DNA from: Candidatus Latescibacterota bacterium
Lineage (GTDB): Bacteria > Latescibacterota > UBA2968
DNA length: 64,000 nt
Direction: 5' to 3'
Assembly: GCA_965232265.1 (NCBI GenBank)
Contig: CBDDPH010000002.1
Span: forward strand, 2,008,290-2,072,289
Within the stretch, counting starts at the first letter, position 1. Each line of letters begins with the position of its first letter. A program made the position numbers and the translations under genes. Positions 13,941 to 14,324 of this stretch are shown one piece after another. A model generated the notes under the pieces. The model saw only the letters and a program-made list of their open reading frames with translations. It was not told the origin of the DNA and did no database searches.

Positions 13941-14324
13941 ATGTCCGTTATCACGTTGAAAAATCGCGTAACCACGCATTCAGATTCAGATGTTGCTTTC
14001 GCCTCTTGCACGGCACTTCCCATCCATCAAACAACGCTCAATGTTGATGAAATGGCGGGTATTGATGGTTTATGGGATTGGGGTGAATTTAATTCGCAGG
14101 TTATAAAGAGTGGTGTAACAACTGGTGCATCAGGTGCAATAATTGGTGGTATTACAGGTGGTATTACAGCAGCAGTCGCGACTAGTCCAACTGGCCCAGG
14201 GGTTTTTGCCGGGATTGCTGCTGGGACGTGGGGCGGAGCTAAGACCGGGTTTGCGTTTGGTTATGCAGCGGGTGTTGTAGGTGCTGCTATAGTATATACT
14301 TATGACGAAATCACGTCAGACTAG
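13941..14324 (+). CDS. glycine-rich GxxxG bacteriocin-like peptide (127 aa)
   Basis: RBS GGAGGA upstream. N-terminal region LNVDEMAGIDG resembles a double-glycine leader, followed by a GxxxG-rich hydrophobic region GASGAIIGGITGGITAAVA...GIAAGTWGGAKTGFAFGYAAGVVGAAIV. Confidence 0.45.
   Translation: MSVITLKNRVTTHSDSDVAFASCTALPIHQTTLNVDEMAGIDGLWDWGEFNSQVIKSGVTTGASGAIIGGITGGITAAVATSPTGPGVFAGIAAGTWGGAKTGFAFGYAAGVVGAAIVYTYDEITSD

Follow-up and report, generated by a model that had tools for sequence, protein, structure and literature searches.

The window analysed here, a 64-kb stretch (64,000 nucleotides) of Candidatus Latescibacterota contig CBDDPH010000002.1, contains a small gene, pepC (13941..14324, + strand), that encodes a glycine-rich peptide precursor of 127 amino acids (aa). 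We propose, with a probability of roughly 0.6, that pepC specifies a precursor whose mature form is an exported glycine-zipper peptide, of the type known from class II bacteriocins with double-glycine leaders and from class II microcins. The reading frame runs from an ATG at 13941 to a TAG at 14322-14324, exactly as quoted in a first-pass annotation of this DNA, and the Shine-Dalgarno sequence GGAGG (13931..13935, +) can be read 5 nt before the ATG. Because 23 relatives were found in a search of 5.8 billion clusters and the leader codons give ratios of nonsynonymous to synonymous substitution (dN/dS) of 0.17-0.40 against six orthologous loci, pepC is no chance reading frame; it is a real gene whose leader is under purifying selection. 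With the family profile as query, HMMER picked out only 28 proteins at E<=1e-3 among 1.84 billion representatives, and a scan of JGI metagenome contigs returned no relative. All seven genome matches of the family are Candidatus Latescibacterota metagenome-assembled genomes (MAGs), one further relative comes from a MAG labelled Gemmatimonadetes by NCBI in which the nadB-guaA synteny is identical, and two more members, P0003 and P0004, lie outside the window on the same 4.7-Mb chromosome. Our literature search found no mention of double-glycine peptides in Latescibacteria.

Members of the family are united by a near-invariant leader of 44 aa (consensus MSxIxLxNRVTTxSDSDxAFASCTALPIHQTTLNxEEMAGIDGL), past which the similarity among relatives collapses, in DNA and protein alike, into a hypervariable core. 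A conserved leader joined to a hypervariable core is the usual signature of the precursors of exported bacteriocins or of peptides made on ribosomes and modified after translation (RiPPs). Most of the cores are rich in Gly and Ala, start with WDWG(D/E)F, are broken in the middle by a (L/V)PGA-like motif that reads SPTGPG in the window, and end in a tail of the form Y-x-(W/Y/F)-(D/E)-E-(I/F)-T-S-(D/E). A few members carry very different acidic cores on the same leader, here called type C. Some of the Gly-rich members have Cys-rich tails (DPQGCTCSCN, KTCKCICACCK; among the listed relatives P0013, P0017, P0020, P0023, P0025 and P0032-P0034).

The pepC leader, MSVITLKNRVTTHSDSDVAFASCTALPIHQTTLNVDEMAGIDGL, occupies codons 1-44 (13941-14072, +) and the predicted mature peptide codons 45-127 (14073-14321, +), giving a product of 83 aa (WDWGEF...YTYDEITSD). 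With a mass of 8019 Da (8.0 kDa) and an isoelectric point (pI) of 4.3, this predicted product falls within the size range of class II microcins, ~5-10 kDa. The residues after Leu44 comprise 22% Gly, 17% Ala, 12% Thr and 10% Ile. The first-pass annotation had described a Gly/Ala/Thr/Ile-rich segment with many GxxxG motifs, and indeed the core holds 10 such motifs compared with 3.55 in composition-preserving shuffles (p ~1e-4), while the looser [GAS]xxx[GAS] pattern occurs 21 times compared with 15.5 in shuffles (p 0.013). It had also called the segment uninterrupted, which it is not, as the core is organized by the conserved WDWGEF start, the central SPTGPG break and the conserved YTYDEITSD tail. 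An AlphaFold2 model built from a 23-sequence alignment, of moderate to low confidence (predicted local distance difference test, pLDDT, 62), places a disordered N-terminus before a short leader helix (35-40) and a helical hairpin (47-80 and 87-125). Against the PDB, Foldseek returned nothing at E<=0.001 for this model, its top hit being membrane helices of the TIM23 complex at an uninformative E of 0.49, and a sequence search of the PDB gave no match (best E 1.8). The annotation had held that a lipobox or a larger structural domain would mark a glycine-rich lipoprotein or structural linker instead of a toxin, and neither was seen. We rejected a lipoprotein or Sec-signal protein, for there is no hydrophobic h-region before the only Cys, C23 (AFASC), which is preceded by the polar VTTHSDSD, and mean hydropathy over residues 1-19 is -0.11; a larger domain appeared neither in Pfam/NCBIfam scans nor in the sequence or fold searches of the PDB.

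Just upstream of pepC lie genes for companion peptides with canonical double-glycine-type leaders (types A and B). Counted from a common Leu-Pro dipeptide, 19 positions of these leaders and of the type-C leader can be aligned with no gap. Common to all three are L at -12, E at -8, M/I at -7, A at -6, I/T/V at -4 and G at -2. In pepC these correspond to Leu33 (-12), Glu37 (-8), Met38 (-7), Ile41 (-4) and Gly43 (-2), so that the place of the double glycine is taken by Gly43-Leu44. The scan that located this register required position -2 to be Gly and positions -7 and -4 to be hydrophobic, and it shows a common frame, not significance. Three independent comparisons support the same register: a variant at locus L001 joins the type-C N-terminus to a canonical ...EISGG end, distant relatives read ...VDGG|WSWEEF and ...VSGG|WDWGEF, and hhalign pairs GIDGL-WDWGEF with IDGGAWSWADF. 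The hydrophobic pattern at -4, -7 and -12 is reported to be the main determinant for C39 proteases (PMC6363468, PMC10885120), and in pepC it is present together with Glu at -8, with a short helix modelled at 35-40. Since this pattern fits only with cleavage after Leu44, we predict that the leader is cut after Gly43-Leu44 to yield the 83-aa product. Cleavage after Gly43, at the Asp-Gly site, was rejected, as it would place Asp at -2 and lose the hydrophobic -4/-7/-12 register.

The peculiarity of this site lies at -1. Types A and B have Gly or Ala there, whereas all 15 distinct type-C leaders of the loci have Leu, and two other members of the pepC family have Met. Published double-glycine sites are GG, GA or GS only (PMC10885120, PMC6363468, PMC12219008), so that pepC has the Gly at -2 but lacks the Gly, Ala or Ser at -1 that is typical of the substrates of ATP-binding cassette (ABC) transporters with a C39 peptidase domain (PCATs). 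The earlier description of a double-glycine-like leader ending in LNVDEMAGIDG thus holds for its register (L-12, E-8, M-7, I-4, G-2) and needs amending in its end, which is ...GIDGL with Leu at -1; the leader is 44 aa long, not 15-25. Elsewhere in the family (among P0013, P0017, P0020, P0023, P0025, P0032-P0034, P0037 and L009 9654-10091), IDGQ precedes GG in one variant and IDGL precedes GS in two, and the true cleavage site may therefore differ among family members.

The second line of evidence is homology to known bacteriocins, visible at the level of the family profile. By itself pepC has no Pfam match at E<=1 and does not reach the gathering threshold of Bacteriocin_IIc (PF10439), 27.1 bits; its best NCBIfam match is E492_microcin (NF051486), at 12.5 bits compared with a cutoff of 50. 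We rejected an E492-type siderophore microcin on that score and because the C-terminus, YTYDEITSD, has no Ser-rich tail. Likewise, Pfam/NCBIfam scans of all 23 aligned members gave nothing above cutoff and only compositional glycine-zipper matches; these sub-threshold matches, to Gly-zipper_OmpA, Gly-zipper_YMGG, DUF6861, YiaD and TagQ, cover the Gly-rich stretch, and the paralog P0004 combines glycine-zipper family matches with a sub-threshold Bacteriocin_IIc score of 17.1 bits. The family profile, in turn, recovers peptides of 78-105 aa with ordinary short GG leaders and a WxWxEF...G(A/V)(L/V)PGA...TY architecture, of the form ...IDGG|xWSWxEF...TY..GWW. Four of these (P0044, P0047, P0049 and P0051) reach the Pfam Bacteriocin_IIc gathering score with 27.1-30.4 bits, and one short-leader relative is WP_285929678 of Aquibacillus, named 'Blp family class II bacteriocin'. 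Aligned with hhalign, the pepC family profile and the short-leader profile match with 99% probability (E 2.5e-18).

As a control for composition, a hidden Markov model (HMM) of eight short-leader peptides was scored against pepC and against 2000 shuffles per region. It gives pepC 24.6 bits and other Gly-rich members 28.6-66.6. Shuffling residues 31-127 lowers the score to a mean of -6.8 bits (maximum 12.3) and shuffling the leader end alone (31-50) to a mean of 1.5 bits, with none of the 2000 reaching 24.6 in either case; when only the core (51-127) is shuffled, the mean is 10.0 bits and 20 of the 2000 reach that score. As shuffles rarely or never attain the score of pepC, the similarity is not purely compositional. 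By profile comparison, then, the pepC family is homologous to the Bacteriocin_IIc/Blp class II bacteriocins. A resemblance to two-peptide and other class II bacteriocins had been suggested from the sequence, and a Pfam or profile search was expected to bear on it: pepC falls below every Pfam and NCBIfam threshold, and it is the family that is linked, at the 99% noted above, to peptides passing Bacteriocin_IIc. The class II affinity is thus supported by profile homology and by the exporter encoded just downstream in relatives, whereas the class IIb part is not, since the window holds no second Gly-rich partner peptide; the companions of pepC are acidic and have no GxxxG motifs.

These companions are encoded by three further leader-peptide open reading frames (ORFs) just upstream of pepC, each with its own strong ribosome-binding site. 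The precursor encoded by pepA (13236..13463, +) is 75 aa long, and its canonical GG leader (...GEMAKTSGG) is followed by the acidic core CILPGEDPLEHLEDIMDYIDDALDYIDDAMSEWWNFWY (CILPGEDPLEH...SEWWNFWY). That of pepB (13578..13805, +), also of 75 aa, joins a canonical Gly-Ala leader, LNRLEIARISGA, to an acidic core (DGCFPVPEDD...NPFPWPM); in 30 other unnamed proteins both its leader and its core are conserved at 60-91% identity, unlike the hypervariable core of pepC. The third, pepA' (12983..13243, +), joins a duplicated type-A leader (...GEMNQTLGG), 80% identical to 13220-13353 (direct repeat D1), to a 49-aa core (FISPL...; FISPLDMAIITIRAIYVVDCASEWIDGVVDDVNEIREYIHAVNGGGRND) that has no counterpart in any of 17 related loci and may be a new core or recombination debris. 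In the wider family, P0037 is a hybrid of a type-C leader N-terminus with a type-A leader end and core.

In related genomes the peptide genes lie beside an exporter. The 17 related loci retrieved, 16 of which extend downstream far enough for the exporter to be counted, follow a recurring order: glycosyltransferases (~850-900 aa and 467 aa), acidic GG peptides (one or two), the type-C peptide, a small membrane protein (TM96), a CPBP protein, a ~1005-aa transporter, a HlyD/AprE-type adaptor and a PpiC-type rotamase. The transporter combines two N-terminal cyclic-nucleotide (cNMP)-binding domains with Peptidase_C39, ABC_membrane and ABC_tran domains. The combination of cNMP_binding, Peptidase_C39 and ABC transporter is found in all 16 loci, and the adaptor in every related locus whose sequence extends far enough. 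In locus L002 the transporter (11762-14776, with its C39 domain at residues ~290-420) passes TIGR01193, 'peptide cleavage/export ABC transporter' (535.2 compared with 523.85), and retains both the catalytic Cys (QSDCGAAC) and His (NHFVVL). In most related loci the 467-aa glycosyltransferase (GT468), with 81-95% identity, comes directly before the peptide genes. Most loci that extend far enough also encode the PpiC-like protein (e.g. L002, 16161-17033), with a sub-threshold match to TIGR04500 (82.7 compared with 180). One related locus only, L002, adds a radical SAM/SPASM enzyme (2323-3762) that resembles thioether-forming peptide maturases (SCIFF, nif11, QhpD-like) at about 250 bits, again sub-threshold.

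Between pepC and the position of the exporter, the window retains two candidate immunity genes. TM96 (14912..15436, +) encodes a small membrane protein with two helices, ~90 aa in relatives, that is tandemly duplicated here with a period of about 246 nt and an in-frame junction through which copy 1 runs into copy 2; a GAA codon of copy 1 has become an in-frame TAA in copy 2 (15287-15289) and truncates it. Next follows a CPBP (Rce1-like/Abi) intramembrane protease of 280 aa (15565..16407, +), a candidate immunity or processing factor, with a Pfam Rce1-like score of 72.3 bits compared with a cutoff of 22.4 and intact EEPLFR, FAIYH and HALNN motifs. A tie between pepC and this CPBP gene, raised earlier as a point to look for, appears in the related loci: CPBP accompanies 12 of 12 distinct Gly-rich-core loci compared with one of the three loci without a Gly-rich core (L005, L006 and L013), and a TM96-like gene 11 of 12 compared with none of the three, counts that were made by distinct peptide from closely related genomes and are suggestive only. 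In L009 and L013 the CPBP gene is displaced upstream of the glycosyltransferases. CPBP was also considered as the leader protease for the Gly-Leu site and rejected, because L005 and L006 keep the GIDGL leader in the absence of any CPBP, which ties CPBP more likely to the Gly-rich core, that is to immunity, than to leader cleavage. We regard TM96 and CPBP as candidate immunity determinants. Kjos and colleagues, in 2010, reportedly described Abi/CPBP proteins as bacteriocin self-immunity proteins of Gram-positive loci. The likeness to these is a CPBP with three motifs beside class II-type bacteriocin genes, co-conserved with the Gly-rich core; the difference is that here a second candidate, TM96, is present, that CPBP is sometimes displaced and that its immunity role is putative. 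In some related loci (L013, 226-1772; L014, 6595-8340) a DUF3267 membrane protein is paired with the CPBP gene; the one of L014 is also picked up by the TM96 profile (E 8.8e-12), a hint that TM96 may be derived from or related to DUF3267.

From these elements we infer a path of cleavage, export, killing and immunity. The short amphipathic helix of the leader (Leu33, Met38, Ile41) would dock in the C39 peptidase domain of a PCAT, the leader would be removed after Gly43-Leu44, and the hydrophobic, anionic 83-aa product would leave the cell by way of the transporter, an adaptor of the HlyD type and a channel in the outer membrane. The GxxxG-rich helical hairpin could then insert into and damage the membrane of related cells, with TM96 and CPBP protecting the producer.

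Such a system has counterparts on both sides of the Gram divide. The Blp/Bacteriocin_IIc peptides (PF10439) of Firmicutes share with the pepC family the double-glycine-type leader frame, the W-x-W-x-E/D-F start of the mature peptide, the GxxxG-rich Gly/Ala core with its central G-(A/V)-(L/V)-P-G-A turn and a late conserved Tyr. Their leaders are about 20-25 aa with Gly, Ala or Ser at -1, whereas that of pepC is 44 aa with Leu, and its product is anionic (pI 4.3); furthermore, the host of pepC belongs to a diderm candidate phylum, and the exporter of its relatives has cNMP-binding domains and a HlyD adaptor. Class II microcins of the MccV type (PMC12219008, PMC10233263) are likewise unmodified peptides of 5-10 kDa with a cleavable N-terminal signal and an acidic, hydrophobic, Gly-rich product, beside a candidate small inner-membrane immunity protein and, in the relatives of pepC only, a type I exporter made of a PCAT and a membrane fusion protein (MFP); they differ in that the pepC signal is much longer and ends in Gly-Leu, that pepC has no Ser-rich siderophore tail and that the window has no exporter. 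CdzC/CdzD of Caulobacter (PMC5380434), likened here by features and not by homology, are proteins of about 85 aa with extended glycine zippers from a Gram-negative producer, but the Cdz toxin consists of two proteins that carry RTX-like N-terminal signals, whereas here a single Gly-rich peptide stands beside acidic ones. The GxxxG enrichment, the modelled hairpin and the size and acidity of the pepC product are reminiscent of both class II microcins and Cdz (PMC12219008, PMC5380434). Lastly, HetC of Nostoc (PMC10986499) shares the cNMP-binding, C39 and ABC architecture of the exporter in the related loci. As the only studied member of this exporter type, HetC acts in cell differentiation and has no known substrate (PMC10986499), whereas the related loci carry candidate substrates directly upstream of theirs; the window has no such exporter.

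The locus of the window bears several marks of decay. Identity to L005 and L006 of 90-93% at the nucleotide level runs through nadB-guaA up to 12420, and the site is therefore the ancestral one. Beyond it, remnants of two glycosyltransferase genes form a deletion scar (12506..12924, +; direct repeat D5), and the N-terminal remnant of an insertion sequence transposase of the IS4 family lies between pepC and TM96 (14352..14690, -; transpos_IS4_1). This remnant covers profile positions 8-82 of 332 at 28 bits, below the NCBIfam cutoff, and the segment is absent from related loci. Similarity to all relatives ends at ~16.39 kb, just before the expected start of the transporter. A C39 transporter or HlyD adaptor occurs nowhere in the 64-kb window, where the sole ABC match, at 41276, is an unrelated ATPase. 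When the part of the window beyond 16.3 kb was compared by tblastx with all related loci, displaced homologs of PCAT, HlyD, PpiC or PhyH did not turn up, so that an inversion could not be demonstrated. Where synteny ends (~16390-16540), just after CPBP, the GC skew of the + strand flips from ~+0.2 to ~-0.2, while in relatives it stays positive through the transporter genes; the flip, seen in a skew profile over 1-34000, points to a rearrangement breakpoint or to a terminus-like region. To the right of the skew break the genes, although on the + strand, have C-rich coding strands. The position of the transporter is occupied by a 450-aa protein with an adenosine-deaminase fold (16540-17892), well below every NCBIfam adenosine deaminase cutoff and with a weak match to the RADAR deaminase RdrB (40.6 bits compared with a cutoff of 800). 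Further on lies a C-terminal fragment of an FtsX/ADOP-type permease (18012-18284, +), which together with the IS4 remnant flanks the module, an arrangement consistent with local rearrangement. Scans for promoters and terminators gave nothing above the level of shuffles, apart from one terminator behind guaA (12635-12660), and no RNA family of Rfam was found in the window at gathering thresholds. Production of the pepC peptide would require that it be served by a transporter encoded elsewhere on the 4.7-Mb chromosome; otherwise the locus would be a relic that mainly keeps immunity genes.

A number of points weigh against an exported bacteriocin. Leu at -1 (Met in two members) is unlike any cited characterized C39 substrate and is the main unexplained feature, and the 44-aa leader has a conserved N-terminal half. 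Further such points are the absence of a Pfam match together with an NCBIfam score of only 12.5 against 50 bits, the missing transporter and adaptor amid signs of decay, and co-occurrence counts for TM96 and CPBP that are not independent. In addition, the exporter of the relatives is of the HetC-like, cNMP-domain type, the sole studied member of which is tied to signalling and not to killing (PMC10986499). Finally, toxicity is inferred for all members of the family.

The decay just described raises the question of whether pepC in this genome is a non-functional relic, persisting because the decay is recent or because read-through expresses the immunity genes downstream. The glycosyltransferase scars, the IS4 remnant, the in-frame stop in TM96, the loss of PCAT, HlyD and PpiC and the end of synteny at ~16.4 kb with its skew flip all point in that direction, as does the divergence of pepC from the Blp-like profile, the largest among the Gly-rich members (24.6 compared with 28.6-66.6 bits). 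Yet the ORF, preceded by a strong ribosome-binding site, is unbroken between its leader and its conserved C-terminal tail, pepA, pepB, TM96 copy 1 and CPBP are intact as well, and the presence of P0003 and P0004 on the same chromosome means that a transporter may exist outside the window; we consider a relic possible but doubtful. At the other end of the scale, a resident glycine-zipper protein of the membrane or envelope, similar to YMGG or OmpA-Gly-zipper proteins and neither processed nor exported, is very improbable. It would account for the compositional matches to families of that kind, but these cover the Gly-rich stretch only and never reach a cutoff, a Sec or lipoprotein signal is lacking at the N-terminus, the leader frame is gapless with the canonical GG/GA leaders next door and the relatives always stand beside a C39 exporter.

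The long leader, with an N-terminal part conserved across all three leader types, would also suit RiPP precursors, in which that part would serve to recruit an enzyme for maturation (467-aa glycosyltransferase, PpiC-like protein or radical SAM/SPASM enzyme) and C39 would cut after modification; in the window, where the modifying genes are deleted, the products would then be immature. The place of GT468 directly before the peptide genes and its high identity speak for such an arrangement, as do the PpiC-like gene after HlyD with its sub-threshold match to a 'putative peptide maturation system protein' (TIGR04500), the maturase-like enzyme of L002, the many pepA and some pepB cores that open with Cys right after GG, and the Cys-rich tails of some pepC relatives. 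However, the glycosyltransferases resemble exopolysaccharide (PEP-CTERM/XrtA-associated) enzymes, with sugar-nucleotide genes on the other flank of the module, and may merely belong to a neighbouring polysaccharide cluster; the radical SAM enzyme is confined to one locus; the Gly-rich core has no Cys and no residue conserved as the mark of a modification site; and the homologous Blp-type bacteriocins are unmodified. Modified peptides thus seem unlikely. Also unlikely is a distinct multi-peptide system in which one ~40-aa leader would have given rise to the three leader types, its conserved N-terminal half would recruit the glycosyltransferase, the PpiC-like protein or both as maturation factors, a C39 exporter gated by cyclic nucleotides would have evolved to cut after Gly-Leu, Gly-Gly and Gly-Ala, and the conserved acidic peptides would be partners or regulators of the hypervariable glycine-zipper toxin. 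Such a system would widen the rule for what C39 transporters accept and provide exporters of the HetC type with the first substrates that could be identified. Less plausible still are exported quorum-sensing or developmental signals, released by a cyclic-nucleotide-gated, HetC-like transporter, with TM96 and CPBP acting in signal processing or sensing. The two N-terminal cNMP-binding domains of the relatives' transporter, like those of HetC (PMC10986499), count in favour of this account, and the well-conserved pepB core (60-91% over 30 proteins) fits a signal or accessory factor better than a diversifying toxin; moreover, CPBP proteases act in the maturation of peptide signals in some Gram-positive systems (SilX, PMC9298176). 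On the other hand, a hydrophobic 83-aa glycine-zipper hairpin is unlike known peptide pheromones, a hypervariable pepC core that co-varies with a small membrane protein is the usual pattern of toxin and immunity, pepC is homologous to bacteriocins, and no sensor kinase or response regulator was seen beside the module in related loci.

Class II microcin-like peptides have already been reported as widespread in Gram-negative bacteria (PMC12219008), and current understanding is not overturned by the findings on pepC. What sets pepC apart from the known kind is a 44-aa leader common to three peptide types, the Gly-Leu site, the acidic companions, the cNMP-domain exporter of the relatives and the uncultured phylum of the host. 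If the exported-bacteriocin interpretation is correct, glycine-zipper bacteriocins of the Blp/class II-microcin type would reach into an uncultured candidate phylum. The pepC family would be a natural one with Leu at a -1 position at which Gly, Ala or Ser is supposedly obligatory. Candidate substrates would also be paired with HetC-like cNMP-domain exporters. Lastly, the window itself would capture a locus in decay, in which toxin and immunity have been kept and the exporter lost, and would thereby bear on 'cheater' or immunity-only genotypes.

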